A DNA stretch of 58,781 bases, filler included, from Dugesia japonica (taxonomy: Eukaryota), in the NCBI GenBank assembly GCA_001938525.1. It is 6 parts of 6 records of this genome, joined end to end, with 100 filler letters (N's around TTAATTAATTAA, not from the genome) between each part and the next. Parts side by side here need not be neighbours in the genome. Positions count along the whole stretch, not along the records: positions 29,594 to 41,015 come from MQRL01613713.1; 5 more parts are not named here. One strand, 5' to 3'. This document shows, piece by piece, positions 17,348 through 52,499 of the stretch. How positions within the stretch are numbered: the first letter of the stretch is position 1; each line of letters opens with the position of its first letter. A program made the translations under genes and the position numbers. The notes beneath the pieces were generated by a model. It saw only the letters and a program-made list of their open reading frames with translations. It did not search any database and was not told the origin of the DNA.

Positions 17348-19110
17348 ATTTTATTTTAAAGTATATGCATGGTATACTTTCATTTTCCTCTAACTAATAC
17401 ATCTTATCATCGTAATTTGATAGCGCTATTTTCTTTGATTTTACACTAAATAACTGATAATTTTTACTTGTTATCCTAAATTGATTTACAGAGACCGATT
17501 GGTTCTCATTGTAACAGTTAATATATGACTAATAAGAAATGTTTGTGTTTTTTACTGTTATGCTTTAGCTTTCATACATGTCCTTTCGCTAAGTAGGCAA
17601 TAGCACTTTGGTCTCAGAAACACTCATTTTTGATACCTATTCCCTAAACTTCCCGATGACTGAATTAAGCTTTTTCCTATAAAGGAGATGCTCTTTACTA
17701 TAATTTGAGATATTTAATAAATCATCTTTTATCATTAATGATACACGTTTTTCCAATTTTATCCCAGTTATCTCAAGAAAAAAGCTGTCAGTATCGCCAG
17801 CTACAATATTTATTTTACAGTTTTCTTCTTTTCTATAATTCTCGAGCTGATACATCCGTAATTTGCTCAGTCAGGTACAGATTGTCCAATGTAGCTTGGG
17901 TCATCTAAACATACTGAATTCTTATTCATTAATACCGCTATTAAGTCTTCGTCAATCTTGATAGATTTTCAAAAGCTGAGTTTAGATGCATATGTTACCC
18001 GCTTTTAGGTTGTTTTACATAATCATAAATTTATTCTTTTTTTAAGGTTTTCTACCGATTTCCCATACAAACTGTTGTTCAGTAGTTTGTAGTAAAGTTT
18101 CTCAAGCTCTGTATTACATTCTGATTTTAATGCAGTGTTTGTTGCAATGGTATTTTCAAATATTAAAGCTTGAGTAAACCTTACCGCTCTATGTACCTCT
18201 GTATCGTTTACTTCCAACCTTATAAATATTTGTAACAGTTTTCAGTACAATGCATAATTAGTTTTACTTTAATATGTTAAACAAATATTTTGAAAAACAA
18301 ATTTAATGGGTAAAATCTATTTTCAATTGCAAAGATCAAAAACGTTTTTGNNNNNNNNNNNNNNNNNNNNNNNNNNNNNNNNNNNNNNNNNNNNNNNNNN
18401 TTTTACCCATTAAATTTGTTTTTCAAAATATTTGTTTAATTTACAGATCAATGGAAAAGTTAATTTTTAGATAAATAGATTTTTGAATTGAAAATTTTAA
18501 AAATATTTATTTCCGAAATGAAGTTTATTAATGAGTTAACATTAGCTTTTTAACTTTACTACCTGTAGCGTCTTGGTGTTCTGCTGCTATTGGTAGATCA
18601 TTAAGATAATCATGAATTTCTGGTTGGATTATCATGTTTATATCCATGGTGTACCCATATATTAATTCACCAAGATCCAATCTCTTATAATCTTCTAATA
18701 CTGATTCTAAACCAGTATGTACTCATTCAAAGTCTTGAAAGGGGAATTTTTGGCTAAGAGCCTATTAATACAAATTGTTAATATCAATGTATAATAGATT
18801 TGTGTTTTCACTTGTGGTGACATGATATTTGTTAATAAATATCAATCTAGTCCTTATCCCACCTTCATAAAAGGTATACATGTCGTGTACATCAACAGTT
18901 CTACCTATTTCTTCAATGACATCAAAACTGATGCCCAGCTCATACCCGGAATGCCAAAGAAATTCAATGGCTCCAATTTCTTGCGAAATATTGATCTTAA
19001 TCTAAACTGTTGGAAAAGATTCGCCAATAAATACATGTCCAGCTTCAAATAAACCATAATATAGTCCAGAAGGGTCTTAAAATTTGTTATTGGTTGCATA
19101 ATTATATGGA
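17348..19110 (-). pseudogene. Polinton/Maverick protein-primed family B DNA polymerase (disrupted)
   Basis: Ordered motifs: YLKLDMYLLANLFQQFR...GIPGMSW, LLYIDINNLY, HDYLNDLPIAAE, YYKLLNNSLYGKSVENLKKR, VAGDTDSFF, VIGKFRE, KKIALSNYDDK. Contains stops, frameshifts and an insertion at ~18270-18520. Confidence 0.9.
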
Positions 19111-19297: not shown

Positions 19298-22200
19298 ATT
19301 TTATTCATTCCTTAGAGCAAGATGCCCAATATGAATTATTTTCTTTACCAGATTAACAGAATGTTAAGGGTAACTTTACTTTGTTAAGTAATAAATTTGT
19401 AGAATTATACAAAGTTAAAGATTTAAGGATTTCTCGTATTACCAAACTTTTACAAATTAAGCAAAATGACCTCTCTTTAAAAGAATTTATTACAAAATTG
19501 AGAGTTTATTAATTTAAAAGTCAAGCAGAATTGAACAGCCAGGACAGAAAAAAGACGTTAATATTTGCTTTTTTATTTGGATTGAACGATAAAAAAGTGG
19601 CAGCAGCAGTTCAATTTCTTAAGTCAGAATCATAGACGAAGCTTATAACTTTGTAAAAAAAAGAAGTTAAAAATGAAAGTAATGAAAATCTGAGACAAAT
19701 TAAAACACAATATGACTAATCAGATGAAGTTTGTTCACTAAAAAAGAAGGTGACAGAATTGGAACAAGTGATAGCAAGGCTATCCAGAGATATAAAGAAC
19801 GGAAGAAATAGATCTGCAGTTAATAACACAAGGACTAATAATGACAGTCAGGATAGAGATATTTAAATTAAAGATATTAAAGGCTTTAACTGTGACAATT
19901 TTGGCCATTTTGTGAGAGATTTTAAAAAACTAATTATGTGTAAAAAATCCAAAAAGGTTGGCCATTTAGATNGATTTTGCAGAACAAGAAATATGGAAAA
20001 AGTCAGATATTTTAATGAAAATGATAGTGAAAATATGGAATTTGACAAAATCAGATCGATTTCAACGAGATCAGAAATGTCCAGCATGGAGACCAATCAT
20101 GCATTGAACGAAATAATTAAGNNNNNNNNNNNNNNNNNNNNNNNNNNNNNNNNNNNNNNNNNNNNNNNNNNNNNNNNNNNNNNNNNNNNNNNNNNNNNNN
20201 NNNATCAATGGACAAGGAGCCATACCAAAAATTAAAAATAAAGCAAAACACTGATTTCAGAGAATCACTCAGAATTAGCTCAAAATAAGCCTTAGGTCTA
20301 ACCGAGAATAAAACAAAAATGGGTAGCGACCCTAATAGATAGTGGAGCAGAATCAAATGTAATGGATTATAATTTATTGTGTGAATTGAGAAAAAGTAAC
20401 AAACGGATTAAATTTTTCAAAAGAACAGAAAGAATGTACTGTGCAAACGGATCGCTTATGAAAATCGTGGGGGTTGCGAAAGTTGGACTAGTAATTGGAG
20501 AAAAAGAATTTGCACTAGAATTTAAAGTGGTGGAAAACATTTTCCCAAAGATTATCATTGGAATTAAATCGATGAAAACGCATAGAATACAAATTGTGCC
20601 CCATGATGACTGTATATATATCAGGAATCAAGATATGCCATTTGTATCAAAAGTTTGTGATGAAGGAGCGGAAAACTAACAAGCACCAATCTTAAGAGTC
20701 ACGATTCAAGTGCTATAGAAAACGAGGCTCAATATTGCTCTTTACGTATCATTTTGGACAAAACTGTAGTTTTAGAAAAGAATAAAGAATATTTTGTGCG
20801 TGAATCAATTGACCGTGATGAATTCAAAATTAATGAAGGAATCTTTGAAAGTTATAAAGATAAACTAGCAAATTTAGATATCTTGTCAGCTAATTCGATA
20901 GTGTAGGTTGACAAAGACGAAAAGATTCTTATAATACTTTACAATTTATCAGATTCTGAAAGAAAAATTTATAAAGACACAAGAATGGGTAGTTTAGAAA
21001 TCTGGGAAGGAAAAAGCGAGTTCATCAGAAATGTTTATTCAGACAAATTTGAGGTGTCTCATGTGAGTTCTAAAAAATGATTTCACGTCTCAAAGTAAAA
21101 AGGAAATAATGGAATATTATCATAACAATATGGGCCATCTAGGATTTATAAAGACAAAGGAATTAATTCAGAATTATTATGATTGGAAGAATATGAGTAA
21201 AGAGAAAATCTTTTATTGCTAAGTGCATTCCATGTATAAATCGAAAGAATGGAATAATTTCTAACTACATTTCTGAAAAACATTTTGTAGCTAATGAGCC
21301 ATTTGAAAAATTATGCATAGATATCACCGGACCATTACCAGAATGTAAAGTCTATAGATATATTTTAGGTGTGATAGATGTCTTCTCAAGATATACCATA
21401 TTGATACCTCTTAAAGACATCAAATCGATACAAGTAATAAATAAATAGTTTAAAAGATGGGTACCAAAAATTATTCACTCCGATAATGGAAGTCAGTTCA
21501 AAAACAATTTCATGGAAGAATTTTGTAAAGTTCTTAAAATAAATCAAACCTTTGCAAGCCCATACTATCATCAAGGGAACGGCCTGGTAGACAGAATTTT
21601 TAGAACTGCAAAAGATAGACTTTATGCAGCCAGCTTAAAAATTCTCACAATTGTATAGATGCCATTCCATTCGTTGAAATTGGTATGAGAATAACAAAAA
21701 ATGAAAAAACTAATTATTCTCCTTTTGAAATAGCTTTAAGCAAACAATTTCAAGCTTATTTAAATAACAAACAAGTCAACTCAAAAAATCTGGAACAATA
21801 TTTAGAGACTATTAGAGTAATTTTAGAAAGAATAAATCAAAATCTAAAAGCAAAAGAGAATGTAATTATTAATAATAACCACCAAATAAAAATTGGGGAT
21901 ATGGTAATGCTCAAATCAGAAAAGAAATGAATGTTAAAAAAGCGATGTAAAGGACCATGTCAAGTTATGGAAATATTACCATACGATAATATAAGAATGA
22001 GTTACAAAAGGAAATTGCTAATTCGTAATATTAATCAAATGCAAAGATTTACAATAGAAAAGCTAGAAGAGAAAGGAGAAAAGAGTCTTAAAAACACAAC
22101 AATAATAAGCCAATCAAAAAGAAGTTCAATAGTGAAACCAAAACAATTAACAAGCGAGAAACAAGGAAGAAGAAATCCTACAAGAGAAAGATGTAAACCA

Positions 22201-22345
22201 ACAAGATTCCGGGGATTCGAATGATAAAAAGAGGGGTGTGATATAATATAAAAATGAAGTGTTTAAATATTCAGATTTTAGAAGAGGATAATTTGAACTT
22301 GTTTTATTTTGAATAAATATTATTTTAGTAATTTATCTTTAACAT
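19298..22345 (+). mobile_element. Internally deleted Ty3/gypsy element (gag, protease, integrase, PPT, 3' LTR; RT/RNase H missing)
   Basis: Knuckle-like CDNFGHFVRDF and KKVGHLDXFC. Protease ATLIDSGAESNV. Integrase HNNMGHLG...PFEKLCIDITGPLP...IDVFSRY...IHSDNGSQF...PYYHQGNGLVDR, then KGPCQV. PPT AAAAAGAGGGG followed by TGTG at ~22236. Confidence 0.92.
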
Positions 22346-25537: not shown

Positions 25538-26570
<1,033 letters not shown>

Positions 26571-29593: not shown

Positions 29594-29665
29594 AATCCAA
29601 TGAAAATTGATTTTATTCAAAATCTGTCTTCATGTCAAAGTTTGTAATAAGAATTTACTGAACAA

Positions 29666-29802
29666 CAGTTCCTAAAAAAGGCTAGGTCGAAATATTGAAA
29701 ATAAAAAAACAGCAACTTTGATCTTTGCTTGTTAAATAAAATTTGGAAATAAAAAATTATTTGTTGTTTAAAACGAGTTTATTTATTGACAGATCAATGG
29801 TT
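29666..29802 (+). ncRNA. Degenerate hammerhead-like motif with the shared tail
   Basis: Reads gttc-CTAAAAA-a-ggc-tag-gtc-GAA-A-TA-T-T-gaa, then AATAAA and ...CAGATCAATGGTT as in the other copies. Confidence 0.45.
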
Positions 29803-29939
29803 TTTTTAAAAATAATTTTTTAAATTTTAAAAAATTAATTTGTAAACTTTGTTCAGTTTTAAATATTTAAACATTATTCTTTACATATTTTACAAATTTT
29901 AAAATAGAGTAAAATTAATTATACGTTCGGTTATAAGTC

Positions 29940-30420
29940 TAAGACTTCTTATGGATTGGTTTCTAATCTTATTTAGAAATATGAGTGTAATGCTACATAC
30001 ATTGGAGACTTCTCGACATCTCAGTAAATTAGTTGGAAACTTAGTTGGTTAAGTAATGGCAGTAATATTGCAGAACATAATATTCAGTGTAAATCAATTG
30101 TAAATACTAATAATTTAAAAATTGTGTGCAGAAATTCTAAAGATTATTGGGAGAGAGACAGGTGCGAAGCAAGCAGTGATGATTAGATCATATGTTCCAA
30201 AATTAATGTTCAAACGGGTCTTTCTAAATCTTCAATGAATATCTTTATTTAATTTGAATTTTGTTGCAACTATTACATAATTGATTACATAATGCGGTAT
30301 TATAGTATTATAATAATATTCATAGTTTGTCTGAAGATGACAAATAAACTATCGAAACGTGTTTCTATTAATAAATATCGGGTTAAATGGCGTATTTCTG
30401 TGCTTATCAATAAAATGCCA
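29940..30420 (+). mobile_element. Penelope-like element: GIY-YIG endonuclease C-terminus and pLTR with hammerhead-like core
   Basis: VSNLI*KYECNATYIG(E)TSRHL...SNIAEHNIQC...NNLKIV...AVMIRSYVPK, followed by CTGAAGA-TGAC...ATC-GAAACGT at 30331-30360. Confidence 0.75.
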
Positions 30421-30769
30421 TTATTTTTTTTTACAATCTTTGAATATATTCTTAAAGATCAATAATTTCATTTTTTAAAAGTATTAATTTTCATTGGTTG
30501 TCCTTTTCAACAACATTTAATACAATTAAACTTCTTGATAATAAACATTAACGTTAAAGAATTAAATAAAATACGTATTTTTTGTTTTAATAATTCAATA
30601 ATAATTAATAAAACTTGTGTTTTATTTCTATTATTATTGTTTGCTGTNNNNNNNNNNNNNNNNNNNNNNNNNNNNNNNNNNNNNNNNNNNNNNNNNNNNN
30701 NNNNNNNNNNNNNCAACAATTCGAGAAAGTAGTGTGATTTTAAATTAAAGTAAATTATCAAATTCGCAG

Positions 30770-31915
30770 AAGAGAATAGAAACTATCAGCAGAGATATCG
30801 CCAGAAAGTCCATATTGTTAGTTTTTCTTCGTCAAATGTTGATAACGAACAAAAAAATTACAGCATCCCGCCTGTTCGTTATAAAGAGGCTTGGATGTAG
30901 GTTCCGAATATATCATAGTTTAAATTTTTTTACTAAAACTATAAAAAACCGGCAATGTTGAAATTGGTTTGAAAAATTTGCAACGGTGGTTTTATAAAAT
31001 TACAATTATTGCGAGAATAATTGTTGGACGTAACCATTGATCGTTTTTCAGAATACATTAAAATGTAATCTTCAATCACTTTTCTTTTGTTTTTGATAAT
31101 GATTCGAATTTCGACTTAGTTTTCGTCAAGAATTGACTTTTTTCCGGTTGTTTTTCACTGAAAGATTAGAAGCGCTCCAATTGTTCATTATAAGTGAATG
31201 ACAATGAAGGATCGTCGTAACGCAACGCGTTACGTTACAATTAAGTTCAATTTATCACATACTTACATTAAAAACCGTTTAAAGGAGATGGGCTATGTAA
31301 TAAAACTAGATTTACGAACTTAAAAAAATTCATAAAAAACACAATTAATTGATATCTGCAATTTGATTGTCAAATGCAACAAAAATAGTCGATTCTAGAA
31401 ACAATTGACAACATGTGATGAAAAACGAATTGCCTACAACAATTTCCGTCGGAAAATATCATGATGCAAGCAACGGGAAACAACGCAGACATTATACAAG
31501 ACTGATATTCGTCGAAGTTACCAAGATTACCAAGAAATTATATAATTTGATGGTTTATCAAACCGCTAACCTGAACATTATAATTCAANAAAAACGAGAA
31601 AATTTTGCAAATTGTAAATGTATTCTTTTCCACCATTACAATGAAAAATTGCATAAATCTATGGTCACTCGTTACAAATTATTGAGCTTGATTAGAACGT
31701 ATCGCCGCATCCAGACATAGCTCCTTCAAATCACCATTTATTTCGCTCTATGCACAACTTGTTGATTGGTATTACTTTCTTTAATAATTATGATGTCAAA
31801 TCTCACTTGTTGAAGTTTTTGTCCATAAATTAAAGGAGTTTTATGAACGTGGAATTATCATGCTGTCAGGATGATGGCAACAGATTATTGATAACCATAG
31901 AAAATAAATTATTTA
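30770..31915 (+). mobile_element. Degenerate mariner interrupted by the hammerhead repeat (30995-31135)
   Basis: Fragments LTTCDEK, LFHHYN, PDIAPSNHHLFRSMHN and GIIMLSG*WQQIIDN. Confidence 0.7.
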
Positions 31916-32301
31916 ATGTATTTTGTATTAAAATTGTCAACTTAACTTTTTATAATTTTGATCCCAAAACAGCCGATTTTAGATATCAAATATGAGAAGG
32001 AAATTTTTGAAGGGTTACTGAATCAATATCGGCAAAGAAATTAATTTAAACAAGGGAACTAATTTCAAAAAAAGAAATAATCCTAACCATAAATAATTAC
32101 TAATAATATTTTATGGAAAAATTCCTTTGTTTAAATTAATTCTGCATTCCTATCAAATTTGTTAACTTCACTTTTTATCAGTTTTCCACCAAAACGTAAT
32201 CTTTTATAGTTTTTGAATATTTTAGATATCAATTATGATACGGAAATATTTGAATACTTACTAAAAATTATAATATTATAATTGGCTTTTATTTCTTTCA
32301 G

Positions 32302-35300
32302 AAATATCACAATGAACTTGATTTGAATTCATCATTAAATGATTCAGAAAATGGCACTATTCTAGTTTGGAAGCCTGATAAAAAGATGTCTTTTTCTTGT
32401 AAGATATTTTTAGTATATATTTTTGAAATCACACACCATAAAAGAATAAATTCAGTTCTACATTTCTTTTGATATTAACTTAAACAAGGAAACTGAAATT
32501 AAAATATGAAATTTAAACTCAAAATTTAAGTCCTATGGCGATGATAACATATATACTGCAAAATTTTCTTAGTATGATTAATTTATAAAAATAATTTGAC
32601 TTAGTTTTTTTTATTTGAAATTTTTTTTAAATAATTTACCTTTAGATTTACAATTATAAGAATTATTGCGAGAATAATTGTTGGAATTAACCATTGATCG
32701 TATTTGAGATTTTATTAAATTAAAAACTTCGATCAAAATATTGTTTTTCTTTTTTATATTTATTCTAGTTCTTGATCGTATTTATAATTTTCGACTTTGT
32801 CTTCGTCAGGAAAAGTAAATTCCTTAAGAAGACAAAGTCGAATATTCTAAATACTATCAAGAACTAGAAAAAATAAATATAAAAGATAAACAATATTTTA
32901 ATCGAAAATTTTAATTTAATTTAATTTNNNNNNNNNNNNNNNNNNNNNNNNNNNNNNNNNNNNNNNNNNNNNNNNNNTTTTAGTCCATTATCAAAATAGG
33001 CAATAAAATTGATTATAATCGTGAATAAAATTCAAATTATTGATACATTTTTACTTTATCTGCATATCTAATGTGAATTTTAGTTTAAATGAACATTATT
33101 TATTTAAATAATCTCTTTCAGAAAGCGCCCTAAATTATTCATTCAAAAATGTATTTGACATGCGCTGTTTTTATTTGATATGGGCAAATCAGCACCTGAC
33201 GTGCATAAAGTACTTGTGAAAACCTATGGTGTTGAAGCTCCGTCCTCCAACTGTAAATTCTGGTTCAAAAGATTCAAATCAGGAGACTTCGACTTGAATG
33301 ACAAAGAGAAAACTGGTCAGCCTAAAACATTTAAAGATACCGATTAGCAAGATTTACTTTTCTAAGGAACTAAACACCAACAAATCAACACTTTCCAGAC
33401 ATTCTCTAGGAAAAATTCAAAAAGAAGGAAAATGGGCTCCCATAATTTTATTAANNNNNNNNNNNNNNNNNNNNNNNNNNNNNNNNNNNNNNNNNNNNNN
33501 NNNNNNNNNNNNNNNNNNNNNNNNNNNNNNNNNNNNNNNNNNNNNNNNNNNNNNNNNNNNNNNNNNNNNNNNNNNNNNNNNNNNNNNNNGCTTGATCCAG
33601 GACAGGCATCAGCGTCTGTTGCAAAGCGTAATATTTATCAGAAAGTTATGCTTTATATCTGGTGGGATATGTAAGATGTTGTCTATCATGAACTACTGGA
33701 ACCAAAGGAAACAGTTACTGGGGAACGATATCAACAGCAACTGAAAAGATTGAATGATGAATTGATAAAAAAGGCCTGTAATAGCCAGCAATCGACGCAA
33801 ATTCTTTCTCTTTCATGACAATGCTAGATCGCATCTTTCTTTAATTGTCAAGAAAACACTATTAGACTTGCTATGGAAAATCCTCCCGCATCCAGCGTAC
33901 TCTCCAAACATAGCTCCATACGATTTTCATTTATTCAGATCAATGACGCAATCTCTGGCAGATATGCATTTCAATACGTACCAAGATGTTCAAAATTGGG
34001 TATCCGAATAGATTGATTCTAAAGAGAAATCATTTTAATTGTCGCGGAATAGCCACATTGCCAGATTTACGGGAAAAGGTCATACTTAACGACATAAAAT
34101 ATAAATGAACTAAATTCGAGAATCAATAAAGTGTTAGGGAATGGATTTTTGCGTCCTACTTCTCTCTTCATTAGTCCCCAAACATTTTCAATTCAGTTCA
34201 TGTGAGTTTGGTGACCACGGTTTAACGCTTGTTATTTGAAGCTATCCAATTTTTTNNNNNNNNNNNNNNNNNNNNNNNNNNNNNNNNNNNNNNNNNNNNN
34301 NNNNNNNNNNNNNNNNNNNNNNNNNCTTGGCATAGCTTTCTTGAGTATTTCTTGATTCTTGTTAGAGTCAACCGTTTCTCGAATTTTTACCAAAATAGAT
34401 ATTTTATTGGTGCTTATTGCTCCCTATACCATTAACCGCGGGTTGCACTTTGTTTTCTCTTTTCTTGGTCTTGCCTTGGAGAGTAATTCCTTTACGAATC
34501 TTCTTCAAATCTCTCTCTATTGTTTTTTTAGATTGCCCAGGTAATTTCATAAAGATTTTCATAATACTGATCCCTGTGGAAACAAGGCGTTCAAGAGATT
34601 GTTTTGCAGCTTTCATTTGTAAAAATTATTAAACTAAAAGTAGTTATAAAATTTATTGGAGTAATAAATAAATTAATCAATAACTTACTAGCCCATGCAG
34701 TTTTAAATCCTAACAAAATATGCTAAAATAACTTTTAATTAATTTATTTAATTATATTAACCATTTGAAAACTTTCCTCTGCCATTTTTTATAGCAATGG
34801 GTATATTGGAGAAAGGGGCGCATTTTGACCTTGATACGATACTGTTTATAATATAAAAATACTATCTAAAAACCTTTTGATAGTGTAAGAAGAGAATGAG
34901 TACAGAGTTTGACTTAAAATATTAAATATTTTAAAAATAAATTAATTAAATTAAAAACTCAAAAAAGGAGGCAACTCTTTCATAAAAATAAAAAAACTCC
35001 ATTTAACAAAATATATATTGACTGTAATTTATTTTGACTGAATAACCATCATCATCAGGCAATTAATGATTATTAAAACAAACTATTTAAAAAGTTTAAA
35101 TGATTATATAATTTCAATTATGTAATCTCAATAAATCAATAAAATTGTTTTATGAGTGATGCTGAATTCGTCAACTGAACATAAATTTTACGAGTTAATG
35201 ACCTTATCTACAAAGCTTCATACATCATTCCATTCCAATAATTATTAAATCCACTACACAACAACTTAAAAGCAATACTTACAATAGCTAAAATCCACAG

Positions 35301-38300
35301 CTACATCAATGAATTTTTTCACAAACTCTACATCAGAAAACGGTTTCAATTTCTTAGCAATTATTCCAGTTATTATGAAATCTGCCTTTACAGCACTCTC
35401 GACAACTTTATTAACTTTGGTAAAGAACGTCTGTTGACCTGAAGGTGCTATTTGGAGACTTTCAATTTTATCTTTTCTTAAAGGTCCCTGCACTGGATCA
35501 AGCTTTACTTCACGCTGACTCTAATTAATTCCCGAAGAAGACAATTATCAAAAATTCGAATTACTAACAACAAATAAAAACATTTTGATCGAAGCTTTTT
35601 AATTTATTGAAAAAATTCATGGAATAATTTTAAATTATTTTCAATAGTTTCCTTAAAAATTTAATAAAAATAATTTAATTTTTCCTTTAAATAATCGACT
35701 TTAATTGTAGTTAAAGATGATATCATACAGTTAAATAATTCTCTACAAAATTGGATCGCAATTAATCGATTTTCTACTTTTCCAAAAATATCACAACATG
35801 ATTTATGGGAGTTGGAAGTTTTAAAGAAATCTCTAGTTATTTTTATATGTAATTCAACGTTATTAACTGATATACATTCCGTGCAATCTGAAAATTCTCA
35901 AACGACATCTTCGACGATGAAGTATTTTTAAAACTAATTTTTATATTTTTAGAATAAGTTTAGTTTATTTAACTTGGCAAAAAAGTGGGGTTTTGAAGCT
36001 TCTAATGATGAAAAGTTAGTTTCATATTTGCTAGTTATAAAAGTAATAAAAAATTATAAAAAAATTATTTTATTTAGTTTTTGTTAAAAATTTAATGTGA
36101 TTGTAATTATTTATGATTGGAAAAAGACTTCATTAATACATATAGAATTCACCAATATTATTTATAATTCTGTCTCCAAATTATTATCATATTTTTAAAT
36201 TCAACTTTCATTGTTTTACTAACAAATTGATTATTTTGGAAAATTTAATTTTTATTGTTAATAAGTTTCATAAAACTGCCCGAAAAAAATCTGGTTTATC
36301 CGTTTTTTCACCAATCAAAAACCGGTAAAACGGTTTTCACCGGCTTCAGAAAATTAAGATTTTTCACAAGTTTTAAATTTATATATTGAAAAATATTTGT
36401 AAATATAAAATATACTAAGAAAATAATTGCTTATAATTTTAATTTAGTTAGTTTTTATTTTTTGTAATAGAATCAGAAATAGACTTAAATAATCACGAAA
36501 AAAATGTATTGTATTGGGTTATNNNNNNNNNNNNNNNNNNNNNNNNNNNNNNNNNNNNNNNNNNNNNNNNNNTTCACCAATCAAAAACCGGTAAAACGGT
36601 TTTCACCGGCTTCAGAAAATTAAGATTTTTCACAAGTTTTAAATTTTTATATTGAAAAATATTTGTAAATATAAAATATACTAAGAAAATAATTGCTTAT
36701 AATTTTAATTTAGCTAGTTTTTATTTTTTGTAATAGAATCAGAAATAGACTTAAATANTCACGAAAAAAATGTATTGTATTGGGTTATTATATGGAAATT
36801 TTTGTTTAGTTTGATGATTCTTGTTTAAATGAATGAAAATCCATTAATTATTAAATTTTTAAAGGAAATATATTTAAATATATGACAATTTTATTAACCC
36901 CTTGTGGTTTTCTTTATTTAAATAAATTATGTATCTAAAACGATTATATAAAAGAAATTTCATAACAGCAAAATAAAGAAGTGAAGTAANGTGCATTATT
37001 TCATTATTTCATAGATTATTATCACATGTCTAACTCTTGATTGATTCACAAGATGTTTTTTGCTTTATACGAAACGCACTCGTTATTGTTTCACAAAGCT
37101 GATATCCTGACATCTAATTTACGGTGCCGATTCAATGGAATGGATCTATTGTGCATATGGAGGGATTACATGGGAATAATTCATTTAAAAATGTTAAAGA
37201 TAGGTGAGACCATTAATTTCTCAAAGTTGAGCGGCCTGCATTAGTTTNTCGCGGCGTATCAATACGTGTAGTTCCATTAAAACATTTTGTTTACCATAGT
37301 GCTACAGAATAGCTAAATTTGTAGCTGACAAAGAACATATCCAAAACTGTATTCGATATAAATATGATTGTGGTTCTAATGCGACACAAGCTCTCAATGT
37401 CACAAAGATTTGTATAGGTTAAGGAAATGCCATCAGTGACAGGCAGACTAGAAATTTGTTTAAATGGTTCCGGGAAGTTAACAAATCTTGTAAAGATCGC
37501 CAAAGAGACCTGGTTGTGAAATTTCGGTGGACAATGATGCTCTATAGAAGTTGGTTGAAGAAGATCCGAAGGTGACCATTGAAGAAATGACAATCACTTT
37601 TTTAGTCACTTGGTCAACTGTTCTGAAACATCAGCATCTGATTTGTAAAGTCTGGAGAATAGTGACTGGGGATGAGAAATGAGTGTTTTATGAAAACTTA
37701 AATAGAAAAAAATAAATCGTTATCTTCAGTTCAAGTACCAATACCTACCTTCAAACCAGGGTTACACTCGAAAATTGTGCAATATATTGTGCATATGGAG
37801 GGATTACATGGGAATAATTCATTTAAAAATGTTAAAATGGGTGAGACCATTAATTTCTCAAAGTTGAGCGGCCCGCATTAGTCAACAAAGAAATAATGAT
37901 ATTTCACTAAGACAACGCTAAACAATTTGCAGCAAAGAAGACTATGCAAAAGGTACACGACTTTAAATGGAAACTCATGCTATATCCTTCATATTCATCG
38001 ATTGTGTGCCATTTGACTATTATTTGTTTCGATTATTGCCCATTTTTTTGTCCGGAAAATCATTCTCGAAAAAAGATGCTATGAAATTGGAACTTGAACA
38101 GCTATTTACTGAAAAACCTTAATTACTATACAAAGAGCGTATTGAAAATTTGGTAGAAAGATGGCAAATAATTGTTCAATCAGGTGAAAATTACACAATT
38201 GATTTATTTAAATAATATTTTATCTGTAATAAAAATACATTTTCATTTGTTTTATATTTTCCGGAAATTTTCAAATAATAACCCCAATATTTGAGCATGC

Positions 38301-40949
38301 ACAAACATTTGTTTTTTTGTTTAAAAAGTTAATATGCAAAATAAATTAAAATTTCTGAAATAAAATACAATTTTAACAGACAAAAACAAATTTATTGATT
38401 TGAAAAGTACAAATGGATTATTATTTCGTACAAAATTTATTTGTAACACTAAAATCTTTGCAAGGAATTAAATACATTTTTCAATTATTTTTTTCGTTCG
38501 TTCATAGAAATTTAAAATTCATATTTGTTAGTTTTGAGATAAAAATAATTAATTAATAAAACCTTAAACNNNNNNNNNNNNNNNNNNNNNNNNNNNNNNN
38601 NNNNNNNNNNNNNNNNNNNNNNNNNNNNNNNNNNNNNNNNNNNNNNNNNNNNNNNNNNNNNNNNNNNNNNNNNNNNNNNNNNNNGACTCATTATAATGTA
38701 CACAATTATGCTGAAAAATCATTTTTGTTTTAAATTAAATTTTTGAAATAATTTAATAATTTTTAACGAAAGATAATTCGGGAAAAAAATAAAAATATAA
38801 CTAAAATGAAAAAATCGATTTTTTTGAAATAAAAAGCAAAGGATGTCAAGGGTATCATCACTTAGAGATGGCCTGATTTTTGAACAAATTTTTCCAGTTG
38901 AGGAAAACACTCTTTCAGTCTCTACACTAGTTGGCGTAATAGTATTCAAATATATGATTTTTGCAAATTTATTCCCCGACATCCTCCTCCTTCGAAAATA
39001 GCCATACCTTTCACCATCTTTTCACGAATATCTACACTGCATCTTAAAATAATTTTTCGAATTGTATTTGCAGATTTTGTGACGTCAAGTGTTCGAGCCA
39101 GCAACGATTTTCTCAATTCAATAGAAGTAATAAAAATACTAAATGGTAGACCATCAACCGCAGTCATTTTGGATAATATTACACCAAGATCATCATTTTC
39201 ATTGTTAAAGTAGCCCGATATTAATAAATTTAAGCGGTACAGCTCTAGTAGATTTATTACATGAGAATGTTGAAGTTTCGTGATTTTCTGCATCTAATCC
39301 CCCTTTTATTAAACATCTAATTTCATGAGTAGTTTTTAGATGCCCACTAGTTGATCCACCACAGGTTTTTATTTGATAATTTTATTATTGCATTTGATAC
39401 AATTTGCCAAATTTCCTGATTTATCTCTCAGAAAATAATGCCAAACGGAAATTTCGTCTGTAACGCCCTTTTTAACTAGTTCAAATTCCATCTTAAGACT
39501 ATTAAAATAAAATATATATCCCAATAATTAAAAAAATATAAATTTTTTCATTAAAATCTACCTGTAATTTAAATGTATTAAATATAGAATATAATTTAAT
39601 TTTATTAAACAATATCGATAAATATCAAATAATATTTTGCACAATATATATTTATTTAAAAATGCGAACTTTAATTTCGTAGAAACGAAACGGTTAAACT
39701 AGTTAATGTAATATGTATAATTTAATTAATTTCATTAAACACCAAATGGAAATATATGACATTTAATGAAATACTGAATACTGGTATTTATAGGTCATAA
39801 TAACGGTATTTTGGTATTAAAAATAGCTCCGTAATACCGGTATTACAGGCCCTAATTACAATGTTTAATTAATACAACAATTTAATATAACAATACCCTA
39901 CAAAACTATCGATATTCTGCAATTCCATTGATGTAACTCAAATACACTTATTTATTGAAGTTTATGTTACAGCCGTATTTTTAATAACGATTACTTCGAT
40001 TTACCAATAAGATTCTAAATGTCAAACTAGGATCTTTATGTAATTTTTAATTATTATTTTTGGAATATTTGTTGGAAAATAAAAGGTTAATTATCAAAAA
40101 GGTTAGTTACACCGTTTGCATCCTTCCGTGGAAGCCCATGAATTTATTGTATTCATAAAGAAAAAATTCAAGTTTAATAATATTGAGATATAATATGTAA
40201 TTTACAAAGAAGCAAATTGAATAGAATTTTGTCAAGAAAGTTTGACAAATATTAGATTTATTTAAAAAATAATTATTTATCAAAATTTCATTTTTATTTT
40301 GTAGTATTTATATTTCGAAGAAAACATCCAAAGATATATATTTTGTATTCATATTACACTTAATATCAAAATAATTTAAGATTTCTTATTTTTTATTATC
40401 AGTAATGGATTGTATTTCGTATGGACAACTGATATCGCATCAATGAATGATTTAGCAATGACAAATTTAATAGTTCCAAACATTTTAATTTTTCAACCAT
40501 GGAATCATACTATCTATATTCACCCGGATTCTCACAATTATCAAAAAATGAAAACGCTCGATGAAAAATCTATTTTAGACTTTTTAGATGCTTTTCAACG
40601 CGGAAATATCGATGTTATTTCTTGTTAATCTGTAATGTTATTTGCGAATATATTTTAGGGTTATGGTGGCGTTGGATTTAAAGCTAAGATGCAAAGAGCT
40701 GGTTATGATTTTATAACAGGCCTTATCGTTAGTGTTATTTAATGAACAAATAGTGAATAATTTTTAATGTTGTTTTATCTCAGGAATTCGTCAGTACAAC
40801 ACCATTGTTAGCTATGTTCATTATTGGTGTTCCACTCAGTGTTATCAGTTTTCTTTGTTATGCAATATGTTGTATGGATACCAGCGATGCTGATTATCGT
40901 AGAGTTGAAGCCAGGCAGCAAAAAAGGATTAAAAAACCTCTTTATGAAG
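32302..40949 (+). CDS. TMX3: TMX3-like thioredoxin-related transmembrane protein, partial (exons 32302-32398, 35711-35921, 35964-36014, 40403-40613, 40659-40727, 40784-40949)
   Basis: GT-AG exons join in consistent phase: GTILVWKP...SLQNWIAINRFSTFPKI...LYFVWTTD...LIVPNILIF...ILDFLDAFQRGNID|GYGGVGFKAKMQR...TPLLAMFIIGVPLSVISFLCYAICCMD. This parallels TMX3 (LSSWINRERF...VPTVVV...AQGG...PLMGCFLFGLPLGVISIMCYGI). The N-terminal CxxC exons and the last exon are not seen in this contig. Confidence 0.85.
32650..32927. repeat. Palindromic fold-back repeat with two divergent hammerhead-like cores at its centre
   Basis: Arms are inverted about ~32815: TTCGACTTTGTCTTCGTCAGGAA / TTCCTTAAGAAGACAAAGTCGAA. 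The minus-strand core is CTGACGA-a-gac-aaa-gtc-GAAA. Confidence 0.8.
33140..34105 (+). mobile_element. Degenerate mariner in a TMX3 intron
   Basis: WFKRFKSGDFDLNDKE, KVMLYIWWD, FHDNARSH, LPHPAYSPNIAPYDFHLFRSM, WEKVI-like. Confidence 0.9.
34150..34616 (-). mobile_element. Tc1-like transposase N-terminal fragment
   Basis: Basic HTH-like ORF (SKKTIERDLKKIRKG) with a downstream FGD-like remnant at the expected FSDE position. Confidence 0.35.
35170..35510 (-). mobile_element. hAT (GTF2IRD2/SPIN-like) transposase fragment
   Basis: QQTFFTK...IIAKKLKPFSDVEFVKK resembles the KPFxDGEFIKEC motif. Confidence 0.6.
35526..35615 (+). ncRNA. Degenerate hammerhead-like motif with a perfect 6-bp stem I
   Basis: Reads taattc-CCGAAGA-a-gac-aatt-atc-AAA-A-AT-T-C-gaatta, followed by the family tail (AATAAA...TTTTGATCGAAG). 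Confidence 0.5.
36778..38289 (+). mobile_element. Full-length but decayed mariner with both TIRs
   Basis: TATTGGGTTATTATATGGAAATT pairs with AATTTTCAAATAATAACCCCAATA, with TA flanks. Fragments RIVTGDEK, H*DNAK, PFDYYLFR and VERWQII. Confidence 0.85.
38719..39854 (-). mobile_element. Internally deleted hAT element (BED finger plus C-terminal dimerisation domain)
   Basis: TIR TAGGGCCTGTAATACCGG at 39854. SVWHYFLRDKSGNLANCIKC...GSTSGHLKTTH, then MTAVDGLPFSIF, then PTSVETERVFSSTG. Confidence 0.88.
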
Positions 40950-41015
40950 GTAAAATAATTTAATTTTCTGTGATGTTTTATATTAGTGTTTCACAACCCA
41001 AAACACATCGAGGAC

Positions 41016-42969: not shown

Positions 42970-45347
42970 TCAAACCATTTCATAAATTTTACAAACTCCA
43001 TTTCCGAAATAACAAACAACAATTGATGAGTATGAAGTTAAAATGTCTACACAACCATCTAATTCTGGTACTCTTTTAGAATCTAGATAATGTGTAGTGA
43101 ATACTTGTCCATCCTAAAATCGATAAATTCCAAATATTCCTCATCCTCAATAAATTAATAAAATTAAACCTCTGTTAGAAATAAACTGAAATTAGTTGGT
43201 AAATTTATACAAGCTTTCATTTTAGAATGAAACGAAAACGAATGAACAAATGTTCTATTCATCACATCATATTTCCAAATCTCTCCATTTTCCAAAGAAA
43301 TATTATAAAATGGATAATTCTTGTGTGCCTTACGGAAACTTGAAATAATATTCGAATTGAATTTTTTCACTTCGATTTTTAACTGCATAAATTAATTAAT
43401 TCTCACTAAAAATCGAATAAACTAAACAACATCACTGGATCTAACAAATTCGTTTTCACAAACCAGATAGCGCTCGTTTTCAATGTTCAAGTATTGCAGG
43501 ATATTTTTAGAATTTCCAGTGTAAAATTTTGACCATAAATTTTTCTAGATTAATTATAAATAAGATTAATTATAAATTGATTTTTCTTCAGAATATTTAA
43601 TTTTACAAAATTAACATTACACATCCAGAAAATGGTAGACTTGTCAAAGTATCGATTAACAATTACTGTAAAAAGAAATTCATAATTTCTTTTTTGGAAT
43701 TTATCAATTTTTAATTAAAGTTTGTTGTCAAATAAATAGTTAAGAACAAAAATATTTTCCTGGAAAACCTTAATAAATGGATTTCTCTTGACAATATTAC
43801 ATATTTGTTTAGATTATGCAATCGAACCTCTCTAACCTGACACTTTTCACTTGTACTTTGGGATTGGCGAATTTAATGTGTGTTTACTTATTAATAGCTA
43901 CTCAGAATTGAAGATTTATAAAGAACGCATTTTATTAGAATCAATTTGAAAAGTTATCAACATTAATATAAAAAATCAACATCAGCATAATAAATTAAAT
44001 AACAAAATCTCAAAAATAAATTTCTACCTTCTTATTATATATTAAAAGCACTCCATTCGCACAACAAACGTTAAAGAATTCCTGTATATTATCCATATAT
44101 ACCACGGTTTCTTTTTTTAATTTAAGCATCAATTTCGGTGAATAATTTCTACAGCACACGTGATTAACACAAAATAATTAATCCAATCAGCATTTATACT
44201 TGATAAAATATTCATCTTTAAATATATCAGTTTTACTAAATTTAATAAAAGAATAATATAAATTGAATAATCCAATACTTTTTTGGTATTTTTATATGTA
44301 ATTTAGTCATTAAAATTTTTCTATTCGAGATTTCGGTAATTTGGCATTGATTGAAATTTTCGTTTCTAAACCGTAAAACTAAAATAAACATTATATTTGA
44401 AATTTACTTGATCAGTTGATTGTTGTCATTTTTTGAAGATAATTCAGGATTGGTTTTAATCGGTTCATCATTACAATTGGTCTGCATTTTCAAATCATGT
44501 GGACTTCTATCGTTCATATAACTAAGAAATTGTTTCAAATTATTATTCACTTGCTTCTTATTATCAATTATATTTTGTTCGATTTTTCTATGGTTATCCA
44601 AATCATTTTGATTCGTATTTTTACAATCATCATTTTTCGTATCAATATTTAATAAAGAATTATTAAAAATTAATAATCTTTCATTCGTTGTAGATAATTC
44701 AGGATTGATTTTGATTGGTTCATCATTACAATTGGTCTGCATTTTCAAATCTGTTTGACTTCCATCGTTCAAATAACTAAGAAATTGTTTCAAATTATTA
44801 TTTATAGGGTTATCCATTTTAATTATATTTTGATCATAATAATCAATTTTTCTACATTTATCCAAATAATTTTCTTTTGTATTAGTATAACAATCATTTC
44901 TTGTATCAATATTTACAGATTTAATTTGTACAAAGCTGTCATCTTTGTCTTGATTATCATAAACATTTCTTTCACATCCTTCATCATCACTATTNNNNNN
45001 NNNNNNNNNNNNNNNNNNNNNNNNNNNNNNNNNNNNNNNNNNNNNNNNNNNNNNNNNNNNNNNNNNNNNNNNNNNNNNNNNNNNNNNNNNNNNNNNNNNN
45101 NNNNNNNNNNNNNNNNNNNNNNNNNNNNNNNNNNNNNNNNNNNNNNNNNNNNNNNNNNNNNNNNNNNNNNNNNNNNNNNNNNNNNNNNNNNNNNNNNNNN
45201 NNNNNNNNNNNNNNNNNNNNNNNNNNNNNNNNNNNNNNNNNNNNNNNNTATTTGAAAATTAATTTTGTCTTTAATTTTTGAATTTTTTTCATTTGCTTCT
45301 TTTATTAAATTTAATAATGAGTAAAATTTGACATTTCCAGTTTCCAT
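42970..45347 (-). CDS. Unidentified multi-exon gene: N/D/K-rich N-terminus with an internal repeat and a beta-strand-rich (WD40-like) C-terminus
   Basis: Exons join in frame across 42-60 nt GT-AG introns: METGNVKF...NQLIK|NENFNQCQ...IPK|KTDIFKDEYFI|KNYSPKL...VCCANGVLLIYNKK and KNLWSKF...RSSD|LKIEVKK...SLENGEIWKYDV...LTE|DGQVFT...CYFGNGVCKIYEMV*. One junction (43670-44027) is unresolved. Confidence 0.7.
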
Positions 45348-46920: not shown

Positions 46921-49128
46921 TGTTGTAGTAGTAAAATAAATAATATATATAAATATTAATTATGATTTGCAAAATGAATTACCAATTGAAGATTTACCTA
47001 ACATGGTGGCAACGGTAAATACCGATTCTATTGCTAAGAGGTTATCACCAAGATGTTCTGCAGAGGAGATGATATTGAGAAACTCATCAAGTGCAAAGAA
47101 ACTTAGCAGTGCAAAGTGAATTTTGAAGCTAAAACCAGAACCCAGATGAAACAAGAGGAGAGATTATTCTCTTGTTTGCTAGATGAAGATTTGTTGGAAG
47201 AATATGTAAAGAAGTTGAAAAAATTAAAGGTTTTCAGGCTCGTTTTCGTATGGCATTTGAGAAAGAGAAAGATGCTGTCAAAGACTTTCAAATTTTGATT
47301 AACTACAGGCGTGGAAATGAAGAGATTCAAGTTTATTTATAAAATGTAAAAGATTTAGTAAAAAGATTATTTACAAATAAAGGTTTTACTAAGAAAAAAA
47401 TGGTTGCAAAGATGCTAGTATATTGTTCGGATAACAAAAAAGTTGAAGAAGAACTGACGTTGAGGAAACGAGAATGTAGAAGAAATTGAAGAAACGATGA
47501 CGTTAGTAGATCGAGTAGAGAAAAACAGAGATCGAGTTGATGCAGTTAGAAGTTACGCGAGAGTTACCAATCGAAATTATCAGAAACCGGTAAACCATAG
47601 AGTGATTAGACATGTAGAGCAAAGAAAGAAAAAACAAAATATCGAATGATTGTTATGTCATAAGATCGTTCATACTAAAGCAAATTGTTCTATCAAAAAA
47701 GTGGTAGAGTACGGGAGTTGTCATAAAACAGGACATATAAGCCGAGATTGTCCAAATTAAAAACCAACAAAATGTTTTGGTTGTGTAAAAGTTGGTCATA
47801 TTAGAAGGTTATGTCAAGAAGTGAGGTGTAAACGATGTGGTAATGGTGGACATCAAACTGAAGAGTGCTTGAAAATGAAAAAAACAACTGAGAAATTTAT
47901 GACTGCAGAAAGATCAAGAAACTGGTATAATCGAGTACATGCGATTGAAGATGAAGATGTCGGTTTGAGGAAGTATATGAAAGTAATTCCAAAAGCAGTA
48001 CCCAAAAGGCAGGGCTCCACCAGTAGAGGAGTTGGTTGGAGCCATCCATTGTTAAATGAAGTAAGTAATTATCCTCAAGGGACCGAAAAGTAGGATGACA
48101 GCAGAAAAGAAAACAAATATTTTGTACCATAAATTCCAAGGCAGACCAAGTGTTACGGCATCAATTCAAGGAAATAAAGTAAAATGTTTATTAGATCCAG
48201 GGGCTAGAATTATTGTGATGATTTCGAGCTGTTTTAATAAATTACGAGAAGTAAATTTAGAAATGAGTAATGAAAGATTGTGTTGTGCAAATAATAGTAC
48301 ACCTGTAATTGTTACGAAAGTTAGAATCGGAGTGATAATTGATGAAGTTTGCAAAGAGATTTCATTCTTAGTTGCTGATAAAGTAACACCAGATCTGATA
48401 GTAGGAAGATAAATGCAGAAGATTTTTGGATATCAGCAGAAGGTGGATAGCAAAATGGAGGGAAAAGTTTAAAATTACATTGAAGCGAAATTTGGAGACA
48501 AATTGAAAAAGGAGAACGATNNNNNNNNNNNNNNNNNNNNNNNNNNNNNNNNNNNNNNNNNNNNNNNNNNNNNNNNNNNNNNNNNNNNNNNNNNNNTTTA
48601 ATGGCAGATAAATGGGATTTAGGACAAACACATCTGATAAGACACAAAATAATCACAAGTGGTGAACTAATCAATGTAAAAACGTATAGACAACAATTGG
48701 GCTTAGAATATAAAATTGAAGAAGCTATACAAAACCTTTTCGAAAATAAAATTATCCGGAAATGCAACTCACCATGGAATACTCCACTGATTTACGTATG
48801 GAAAAAGGAAAAGAAAGACATAAGAATATGTTTAGATTTCAGACAATTGAATGCAGTAACAAAAAGAAAGGCTTTTTCGATGCCTAATGTCAATGAAATG
48901 CTGGACATTTAGATGGAGCGAAATATTCCAGTTCAATAGATTTGGGAAATGCATATTCTATCGGGTAGAGCTCGAAGAAGAATCTTATGAAAAAACGACG
49001 TTTTCAATGAAACACGGACAATATTGTTTTAGGAGAAAGCCATTGCAGCCGCATCAGATACATTTCAGGAGATGATGACAAAAGTGGTTGGTTGAATCAA
49101 TGGAGCCATGGCTTATCTTGATGAAATT
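46921..49128 (+). mobile_element. Ty3/gypsy element 5' part (short LTR, PBS, gag with four CCHC knuckles, protease, RT up to YLD)
   Basis: ...AACA|TGGTGGCAACGGT (PBS). Knuckles CHKIVHTKANC, CHKTGHISRDC, CFGCVKVGHIRRLC, CKRCGNGGHQTEEC. Protease CLLDPGA. RT SPWNTPL...IRICLDFRQLN...AMAYLDEI. A WTGP integrase tail reappears at ~50100. Confidence 0.93.
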
Positions 49129-50244: not shown

Positions 50245-50329
50245 TTTTTATTTGAAACAACTATATTTCAATTATCGTAGTATTCTTTTATTTTCTACTC
50301 TTATTACACTTTGAGAAAACATTTAACAG

Positions 50330-50620
50330 TTTAAAATATCATTTACAACCGAATTTTCAAAAGAATTTCAAGGAAGAATGTGCTTATTTCTTGGAACAGT
50401 TTTGAGGTTATCTTCAGCCTTAATACCTTTAGGATGTTTTGTTTCATAAAGCCTATTTAAATTACTGGTTCTAGTTTTTTGTAAATCAAATTTATATATT
50501 TGATTACAAATTTAGCAGATTGCTTTTCCAAGATTAAAATCCTTTTAAAAAACAATTGAACAATTCGGAAGTTAAATGTAATATTGTATCTTGTTCGGTA
50601 ATTTTTTGTTTGTCCATTTT
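50330..50620 (-). mobile_element. hAT BED zinc-finger remnant
   Basis: KAIC*ICNQIYKF...TSNLNRLYETKHP. Confidence 0.6.
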
Positions 50621-51189
50621 GAAAGAAAAAGAAATCAAATTATTCGAAATGAATTATTTATTGAAATATTAAAACAAATTGTTTAATCTTAGAGACAAGT
50701 ATAATTATATACTGAAATATGAATTATACCGCTACTAATCCGAAAATTTGGGTCACAAAATGTTGAAATGGGTTAGGGTTTTAAAGTACGGATTACTATA
50801 GCTTTGGATTGGATTCAAGTTTATCCATAAAAATTTATTAAAATCAAAAAGATAATTAAATAACAACTATCATTTAAACAAATTTACCCTTACTATTTTT
50901 TATCTATTTTTTTTAGTTTTTCTTTTCATTTTTTTAACTTTAAAACCATTTATAAATAATTAGATTAAACAAATTGTAAACATTTATAGCTTTCCTTACA
51001 ATATTAAAATAAAATCTATCAACCGAAGACTAATTTTCGGTTAATTTAACTAGTTTTTAGAGCAAAATATTATTTGTTTTCTAATATTAAGTTAAGTTTT
51101 TTTTAATCTTCAACTTTAAATTAAAAGTTTTCAGCTTAAACAAAATTTTAAAAATCAAAATAAAACCATTACAAGTTTCTCTCAACAAG

Positions 51190-51990
51190 TTACAAGTTTA
51201 TTTATCCCAATAGAATAGAAATGCAAAAAAATCTTCGAAGGCATTAATGACAGCATCTCGGTTTTTGAATGTTTTCACATCCATGCAATTGTCCAAATAT
51301 TTGAAAAAATTGTAATCAGTAGGCGATAGATCTGATGAGTATGCAGTATAAATTGTGAGATGTGTCGACATGGAAAAGTAGTAGCTTCTTTCTGATGTCA
51401 AGGGCCAGATAGCTCGCTTCAATTTCTGGTTCAGTTCATCAATTTGATCACAATACTCTTCTGCCGTAATGATTTTACCGGAATTCAAAAGGCTGTAGAA
51501 GGCTCTCAAATAGTCACCAAAACCTTCCGTTAGCGTTGCTTTCACTTAGGAAAATGTTTAAAGCTTCATTAAGCAGAACGACAACGGTTATCGTACAGTA
51601 TTCACTTCTCATCACACGTCATAATTCGATAACGGTTTTTTGTGGCGCGAAAGAAATGCTGACTATAAAGGACAATATCTTTGAATTTATGTCAATTTTT
51701 GAGGTATCCATTAGTTGAGCTTTTTTGATTTCCAGATTTCTTGCAAATGATTAAAAACGCCTAGTTTCCAAGCAAGTTCCCGAAATTTTGTATGCAAATC
51801 AGTCGTAACTAACTCCTTAAATTGATCATCTTCAAAACCTTCATCTCAAGTCTTAAATATCCGAAACCAACACTCTTTGCTAAATATATGAGTGATATTT
51901 TGAGTACCTTTAAAGGTTTGATTATATTTCTTGCCTCTTATAAACTCAAATTATAATAATCTGTTTATTTTACATTTTTTTTTATAAATG
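51190..51990 (-). mobile_element. Degenerate mariner
   Basis: ITAEEYCDQIDELNQKL, AYSSDLSPTDYNFFKYLDN, RIMTCDEK and WFRIFK. Confidence 0.85.
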
Positions 51991-52499
51991 CTAGAAACGA
52001 TTTTCAATAATTAACTTAAATAAGTTTTTTATTATATTACTTTAATCAAAAAACGCCTTCAAAATTATGACTTTAGAATAAAACAAAATTTTATTTAAAA
52101 AACCATAATGGAAAACAAAAATTTCTTAAACAATCATTTTTTTCTTTACAACATAATATTAACAAAATATTTTTGAATAAATAATATTAAGGACCTTTGT
52201 TTGAAAAGTTTCTCTATTTTTTTTAATTTTAAAATTTTTAAGATAAATCTGAATTCAACTTAACTTAAAAATTATAGCAGGAAAAGGTATATATAATATT
52301 TCTAATGTGTGCGATACTATTAATTTTTACACAACATATCTTCTGCACTCAGTTTTGTGTATAATTTATACCAAATGTAATTTTTAAAGAAATATTTAGC
52401 GAATTGTTAGAAACAATTAATAACTGTTATGAAATTTGTTGTATATTGACTTCACTAGTAAGATTTGATTGGATGGAAGAGTAAGTAATGCGAGTTAAT

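Follow-up and report, generated by a model that had tools for sequence, protein, structure and literature searches.

How did two copies of a short repeat, each with the core of a hammerhead ribozyme, come to lie head to head at positions 32650-32927 of a stretch of Dugesia japonica DNA, and to what kind of mobile element do they belong? The window analysed (the whole stretch of 58,781 nucleotides, nt, from assembly GCA_001938525.1) consists of six scaffolds joined with spacers, has a GC content of approximately 25% and contains many gaps. It is repeat-rich and animal-like, since it carries a C2H2 zinc-finger gene as well as mariner, hAT and integrase remnants. The paired copies belong to a family present at seven loci on three of the six scaffolds (1-10217, 29594-41015 and 50245-58781). 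An initial annotation of this DNA had listed eight hammerhead cores on three contigs; all were found, on the right strands and displaced by a few bases at most. We consider it likely that the family consists of retro-insertions of nothing but the pseudo-long terminal repeat (pLTR) of a Penelope-like element (PLE), made by the reverse transcriptase (RT)/GIY-YIG machinery of such an element and decaying neutrally.

The repeat family and its hammerhead core

The repeat family is real. When each locus in turn was left out of an nhmmer profile, all seven were recovered (E values from 7.5e-22 to 0.006, the weakest members being the copies at 29668 and 57784), and the top match outside the family had an E value of at least 0.5. 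The copies form two groups: (i) group A, with AATT at stem III (567-770, 30994, 32650-32927 and 35527), and (ii) group B, with ATAT (10103, 29668 and 57784). A profile of group A retrieved the 10103 copy as a non-seed match (E 1.8e-6, 23.4 bits), the top control scores being 9.6 bits in the reversed window and 6.9 bits in 10 local shuffles. A covariance model of the seven copies revealed no additional member in the window (top non-seed match, E 0.39). The seven loci amount to approximately 1.3 kb within 56 kb of called bases, i.e. about one locus per 8 kb of the window.

Besides two fold-back loci, group A contains two single units. One of them (30994-31144, minus strand) lies inside a mariner remnant; the other (35527-35696, plus strand) has a stem I of 6 bp without mismatch, is diverged towards its 3' end, and adjoins an hAT-like open reading frame (ORF) fragment, likened, as a lead only, to the hAT-derived proteins FAM200/ZBED5 (Atlas). 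The group B copy at 10022-10142 (minus strand; leave-one-out E 7.6e-8) is cut by an assembly gap. The other two, at 29597-29802 and 57715-57892 (both plus strand), have approximately 70 nt of upstream sequence in common, a similarity reached by 1 of 1000 null segments; this stretch is missing from the 10103 copy.

The published descriptor of minimal hammerheads (supplement to Cervera & De la Pena 2014, PMC4209133; here and below, statements on the literature refer to excerpts of the papers cited) specifies a stem I of 3-7 bp, CUGANGA with an optional base, a stem II of 3-7 bp, a loop of 3-10 nt and GAAANNUH. The column majority of all eight copies passes this descriptor, as does that of the five group-A copies; in both cases stems I and II are 3 bp long, the loop has 3 nt and one base is added after A9. 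The passing majority also displays the hallmarks of PLE minimal hammerheads, namely the extra base after A9, the G10.1-C11.1 pair and a palindromic 15.1-16.1 segment, which bears out the annotated reading of the consensus as a minimal type I hammerhead such as PLEs carry. The majority of the three group-B copies fails, because G8 is kept in none of them. For a random 170-nt consensus, the chance of fitting a similar descriptor of our own was estimated analytically at approximately 2e-7.

None of the eight single copies passes the descriptor, and the annotation was correct in stating that each has at least one core or stem mismatch. The best-preserved hammerhead (32780-32814, minus strand) alone has a complete core (11/11 bases) and fails only at stem I, where the first pair is mismatched; it contains CUGANGA at 32809-32803, an extra A, a 3-bp stem II with a 3-nt loop, GAA from 32792, AATT, and H17 at 32785. 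The small dimeric PLE hammerheads of Lunse et al. may already include variants with a 3-bp stem II. Across the copies in register, 66 of 77 core bases are kept, and identity to the majority is 86% in the ribozyme columns versus 83% elsewhere, i.e. the ribozyme columns are not better conserved. The ancestor of the family was probably a minimal hammerhead and the present copies are probably dead, because the majority fits, no copy passes and the ribozyme columns have decayed to about the same degree as the rest.

A relaxed descriptor gave one match at penalty 1, compared with none at penalty 2 or less in six shuffles, and seven matches at penalty 3, modestly above the 0-4 obtained per shuffle; therefore, single decayed cores are not significant alone. 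When a 51-nt stretch was compared with Rfam, RF00163 (Hammerhead_1) was the sole match among 4227 families (12.7 bits, E 0.98). The RF00163 model describes the canonical form of the hammerhead. Rfam scans of the whole window and of 161 nt at 32740-32900 revealed no hammerhead, only sub-threshold microRNA-like hairpins. Some details of the annotated consensus need revision: the stem III tetramer, described as palindromic with changing sequence, is indeed AATT in three copies and ATAT in three, but is broken in two of the eight; stem I is firm for 3 bp only (4-6 bp solely at 31101 and 35526); and AATAAA following the cores carries little weight, being expected in approximately 0.23 of 60-nt stretches here.

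Fold-back pairs, unit ends and target duplications

The fold-back at 32650-32927 is real. Its arms meet head to head at a hairpin with a 5-bp stem and a 7-nt loop (32808-32824), the putative site of cDNA self-priming. The long arm (32650-32812, minus strand) contains the best-preserved hammerhead, an A-rich spacer, a putative ATG (A at 32694) and a 3' stem-loop (32661-32679). The short arm (32810-32927, plus strand) is composed of a 5' leader, a decayed hammerhead (9/11 core bases) and spacer; homology stops near 32920 and a 50-N assembly gap begins at 32928. The arms are 87% identical, and therefore do not represent an assembly duplication, since the gap-side duplications of the window are near-identical. 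The leader is present in the plus arm, and the start of the minus arm lies inside stem I, as would be expected if the 3' end of a cDNA had folded back and copied itself. The whole structure folds as one hairpin (approximately -98 kcal/mol), and the pair would be unable to act as a cleaving dimer, because its ribozymes lie on opposite strands and are locked in this hairpin.

A second fold-back (567-770) has lost its centre, including both 5' ribozyme halves; thus, both inverted pairs noted in the annotation, at 32815 and, with the centre deleted, at 700, were found, in head-to-head orientation. The two loci agree with the PLE pattern of an inverted copy with a palindromic junction (32808-32824 in the first pair). 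At the second locus the long arm (567-699, minus strand) exceeds the short arm (700-770, plus strand) by approximately 54 nt; the corresponding figure for the pair at 32650 is approximately 60 nt and adjoins the gap. One duplicated insertion was rejected as the source of both loci: their flanks beyond the unit showed no significant homology (74 and 431 of 1000 null segments scored as high), and the two fold-backs are therefore separate insertions. Identity among the four arms is 79-89% and follows a star pattern; two sites are shared within a locus, none left-left or right-right, and one site is homoplastic. On this thin evidence the arm variants disfavour a master copy that was already folded back. 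The earlier proposal that the family is amplified in fold-back form was thus not supported: two sites favour separate formation and none a shared master, and two of the copies with duplications are single units. A candidate third fold-back upstream of 57784 was also rejected (z 3.1 and 0.3 against two of the copies, and -0.9 against its own downstream part); this sequence is better explained as the upstream stretch shared within group B.

The units were thought to end in GATCAATGGTT. However, group A extends some 35-40 nt beyond it, through a 9-bp AC/AT-rich stem-loop which is itself 3' of the putative ATG, and this same stem-loop precedes the 3' ends at 567 and 30994 by 5 and 8 nt, respectively. 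The 5' ends at 31144 and 32810 have a common G-A-rich leader, so that the unit 30994-31144 combines the leader of the 32810 arm with nearly the 3' end of the 567 arm. A putative ATG with a common frame of 11-14 codons is present in three copies, approximately 115 nt 3' of the core, the stem-loop lying 15-35 nt inside the frame. Placement of the ribozyme within an intron of a 5' untranslated region (UTR), with GT in the leader and AG before the ATG, was considered and rejected: AG was found in only two of six copies, none of them in group A.

Direct repeats adjoin both ends at three of the seven loci, each with one mismatch: (i) 18 bp around the second fold-back (549-566 and 771-788), (ii) 10 bp around the unit in mariner (30984-30993 and 31145-31154), and (iii) a candidate 10-bp duplication around the unit beside the hAT-like fragment (35517-35526 and 35697-35706). 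Among random site pairs, 57 of 1500 reach 10 bp and none of 1500 reaches 16 bp. No convincing duplication was detected at 57784, and the three other loci are interrupted by gaps or a scaffold end. These target duplications support the view that the family is mobile. Insertion into other transposons was also supported: the 30994 insert splits a mariner, of which tblastn detected sequence at 31678-31803, and its duplication repeats codons that read G-D-F in another mariner of this window, at 33132. Terminal inverted repeats and duplications of fixed length had been named as the mark of an ordinary miniature inverted-repeat transposable element (MITE). The family is not a MITE, because its duplications vary in length (10, 10 and 18 bp), two of them surround single non-inverted units and the fold-back arms are unequal.

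Origin of the insertions

In the structural tests the family appears to work like the pLTR of a PLE. The fold-back geometry equals the published junction of inverted PLE pLTRs, and is therefore much less surprising than it would otherwise be; self-priming of cDNA is the best reading of these pairs. The pLTR-only insertions may have arisen as follows. An uncleaved RNA would begin at the G/A-rich leader, some 13-15 nt upstream of the core, and would bear the ribozyme together with a short UTR and the initial codons of an ORF. If the lizard PLE PAc is a guide, the PLE protein would nick AT-rich DNA and RT would begin at the AC-rich stem-loop just 3' of the ATG, which would fix the 3' end. RT would then reach the 5' end of the RNA, yielding the observed 150-175 bp unit, and integration would leave a target duplication of 10-18 bp. 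Occasionally, the cDNA 3' end would fold on the leader hairpin and copy itself, giving a head-to-head pair whose arms differ by the tail of 54-60 nt. Judging from the literature, the parent ribozyme would cleave only when dimerised at the palindromic tetramer of stem III or when assisted by protein.

Several observations weigh against this explanation. A search with 125 Penelope/Poseidon-type proteins (the best 120 of 1504 matches plus P0002-P0006; the Neptune, Nematis and Hydra clades lay outside this set) revealed no RT or endonuclease joined to the family in the window, and matched only remnants of another family. The putative N-terminal peptide at the ORF start had no match among these proteins, and a frameshift-tolerant scan upstream of 57784 scored 15.0 against a background median of 13. 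The hammerhead reading itself is weakened by the lowest-energy fold of the best copy, which differs from the hammerhead fold, by the RF00163 score of 12.7 bits, below the gathering cutoff of 34, and by the decay of the ribozyme columns. Covariation in stems I and II did not exceed that of shuffles: 71% of cells are paired and 181 of 500 shuffles scored equally well, the alignment comprising seven decayed copies, one of them out of register through a 1-nt deletion. Compensatory change is confined to AT/TA at stem III, where groups A and B differ. Of the three duplications, two measure just 10 bp, a length that random site pairs do reach, the fixed ends are based on two copies per end, and separate fold-back events are favoured by two sites to none, with one homoplastic site besides. 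Finally, the tail of 54-60 nt exceeds the 30-40 bp reported for PLEs. In addition, we rejected the region 57400-57740 (plus strand) as a decayed GIY-YIG end upstream of the 57784 copy: its frameshifted resemblance to such an end was seen by eye only, and it received no support from Pfam, tblastn/HMM with the Penelope-type set (the Neptune and Hydra clades again being outside), a frameshift-tolerant profile or DNA comparison.

The lack of an attached ORF at any of the seven loci, within the same protein set, would also suit a dedicated non-autonomous, SINE-like derivative of a pLTR (SINE, short interspersed element) with its own transcription, mobilised in trans by a PLE protein and having no coding parent of the same sequence. 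Insertion would proceed as in the pLTR-only explanation, and of the rival readings this one comes nearest to that of the initial annotation. The similar ends of the copies and the high density of the family favour such a derivative, and PLE derivatives and pLTR-related retrozyme monomers of this kind have been reported (PMC8557442; bioRxiv 10.64898/2026.07.22.740005). However, group B copies extend some 70 nt upstream, as 5'-truncated pLTRs would, an ATG with an open frame stands where a pLTR carries its ORF start, and the absence of a coding parent cannot follow from a single window; we regard this explanation as rather unlikely. Much less probable still are monomers of a non-LTR retrozyme (LTR, long terminal repeat) spreading through ribozyme-cut circular RNA. 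Units of 150-200 nt containing a type I hammerhead would fit, and dispersed retrozyme monomers have been reported (bioRxiv 10.64898/2026.07.22.740005), but head-to-tail tandems occur at none of the seven loci, the copies hold both ribozyme halves and end at the stem-loop rather than at the cleavage site, and the ribozyme is minimal, whereas known retrozymes, as excerpted, have canonical type I motifs (PMC7229834).

Two loci are long inverted repeats, as in a fold-back or MITE-type DNA transposon that resembled a hammerhead by chance or capture. Such an origin is highly improbable in view of the single non-inverted units with their own, variable duplications (10, 10 and 18 bp), the unequal arms, which do not cluster left-left and right-right, and the chance of a descriptor fit of the 170-nt consensus (approximately 2e-7, analytic). 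An assembly artefact (an inverted duplication beside a gap) or low-complexity AT-rich similarity is hardly credible: the short arm does meet a 50-N gap, and near-identical duplications surround two other 50-N gaps in the window, but the arms here differ by 13%, the second fold-back is gap-free and has an 18-bp duplication, and all seven loci pass the leave-one-out analysis. The duplications just mentioned, inverted and direct (18270-18445 and 36307-36788), are probably assembly artefacts themselves. Just past one of them, 18440-18455 (plus strand) resembles, over a short stretch, the motif that surrounds the ATG in group B; it was not recovered as a member.

A more specific version of the pLTR-only explanation is tentative. 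The family could be a fixed-end element of 150-175 nt, in which RT starts at the first, 5'-proximal copy of the stem-loop and runs straight to the 5' end of the RNA; it is likewise doubtful, though conceivable, that such an element is very abundant and that its hammerhead (3-bp stem II, 3-nt loop) ranks among the smallest in nature. If this were true, solo pLTRs and pLTR-only fold-backs would be direct 'strong-stop-like' insertions and not leftovers of recombination, and such products could turn into a self-propagating SINE-like family. The leader hairpin would then be a defined self-priming switch, and the origin of PLE inversions would be testable on a 170-nt RNA.

Penelope remnants and known systems

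The window also contains, in favour of a PLE origin, three remnants of another, Penelope-type family: (i) 29866-30420 (plus strand; protein and DNA homology), a 5'-truncated GIY-YIG end with its own pLTR and a hammerhead at 30331, (ii) 34960-35285 (minus strand), with a pLTR and a decayed hammerhead (tblastn E 7e-13; DNA homology to 30100-30420, with 0 of 300 null segments as high), and (iii) 9120-9330 (minus strand), a pLTR remnant recognised by DNA homology to 30250-30450 (z 11.7) and without a protein-level match among the 125 proteins. The Penelope-type proteins place coding remnants at 29866-30249 and 35142-35285. With the frame 29908-30186, phmmer gave seven matches, i.e. six Penelope-type proteins, one of which (P0001) combines RT with a weak match to GIY-YIG, plus an unrelated LysM protein; the Penelope remnant had no match when proteins were searched by a word-based method. 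The pLTR of the three remnants showed no homology to the hammerhead repeat family. The hammerhead of this Penelope family has a U bulge, a longer stem II and probably a 6-nt stem III segment. The ACGT tetramer proposed earlier for the Penelope copy at 30355 would put G at position 17; the 6-nt reading gives U17. At 30331, A9 together with the bulge and G10.1 spells an ATG, which resembles the situation described for PAc.

All three remnants lie within 790 bp of a copy of the hammerhead family (P approximately 0.0035, assuming uniform placement, post hoc and ignoring clustering of transposable elements). This proximity fits the reported habit of PLEs of inserting in or beside other PLEs (PMC6765202). 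At 29797-29911 (plus strand), the ATG of a group B copy and the Penelope endonuclease remnant share a reading frame and almost adjoin each other, an arrangement that may reflect nested insertion or a template switch. A composite element of group B and Penelope remnants was rejected, since 29800-30250 showed no homology to 9240-9999 (29 of 300). Beside the 9120 remnant, 8010-9120 is a tandem array of at least eight units of approximately 149 nt, with a three-unit higher-order repeat.

Elsewhere in the window, an open frame of 299 amino acids (25671-26570, plus strand) encodes three C2H2 fingers and is presumably EGR-like. Decayed coding remnants resembling LTR retrotransposons, with protease-, RT- and integrase-like pieces, were found at 19867-22224 and 47761-49100 (plus strand), an Asn/Asp-rich open frame with an internal repeat of approximately 255-264 nt at 44404-44994 (minus strand), and short-period minisatellites (units of 28, 31-32 and 10-22 nt) adjoining an ATT microsatellite at 10580-14000.

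Minimal hammerheads are known in their thousands from animal PLEs, mostly solitary and in part paired on opposite strands, as in Schistosoma, with low activity even as dimers (PMC4209133). The present family shares with them CUGANGA with an extra base, the G10.1-C11.1 pair, GAAA-NN-UH, a palindromic tetramer and a short stem I, as well as the predominance of solitary motifs with occasional opposite-strand pairs. It differs in that its stem II of 3 bp and loop of 3 nt are at the minimum of the descriptor (4-7 bp in the published examples excerpted), and no linked ORF was found in the window with the 125 proteins. The family adds one case to these thousands and, since none of its eight copies was detected, shows that families of this sort escape both Rfam and strict descriptors.

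The non-LTR retrozymes, which are tied to pLTRs, are likewise short and non-coding, contain a type I hammerhead and include dispersed monomers (PMC7229834; bioRxiv 10.64898/2026.07.22.740005). Unlike the family described here, with its minimal ribozyme and no tandem at any of seven loci, they are defined by head-to-tail tandems and circular RNA. Other literature compared included PMC6765202 and PMC6155905. Among titles and abstract openings (subscription papers and Repbase lay outside this search), we found no paper on the family or on pLTR-only fold-backs with target duplications.

Closer parallels come from rotifer and lizard PLEs. Arkhipova et al. (2013, PMC3846280) invoked self-priming to explain why pLTRs of Penelope elements in Adineta vaga are joined head to head at palindromic junctions; a tail on one arm, duplications of 8-10 bp, pLTRs with the first 12-22 codons and solo pLTRs were also described, and the same scheme, together with non-autonomous derivatives, is given by Craig et al. 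(2021, PMC8557442). The palindromic junction, shorter arm, one-end tail, duplications and solo pLTRs recur here. In contrast, the insert here is only a pLTR or a pLTR pair, the solo units keep duplications that the solo pLTRs of A. vaga, in the excerpts cited, lack, and the tail of 54-60 nt compares with 30-40 bp (PMC8557442). For PAc, a Poseidon-type element of Anolis carolinensis (Frangieh et al. 2024, PMC11167929), internal initiation of RT at an AC-rich stem-loop inside the ORF start, an uncleaved RNA substrate and a protein-assisted ribozyme were reported. The present inserts likewise end at an AC-rich stem-loop in the putative ORF start, lie in AT-rich targets and contain an uncut ribozyme, but their putative ATG is approximately 115 nt 3' of the core, with the stem-loop located inside the frame, 15-35 nt from its start. 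Should the fixed ends hold throughout the genome, the family would offer a very small natural substrate for studying the origin of the inverted pLTR and its one-sided tail, and for asking what purpose the ribozyme serves when inserted copies are uncut. The family is new; its arrangement, including the mirror-image pair, is one already described in other animals, and by analogy its anatomy (head-to-head pair, hairpin junction, one-arm tail, putative ORF start and 3' stem-loop) matches that of rotifer and lizard PLE pLTR insertions.

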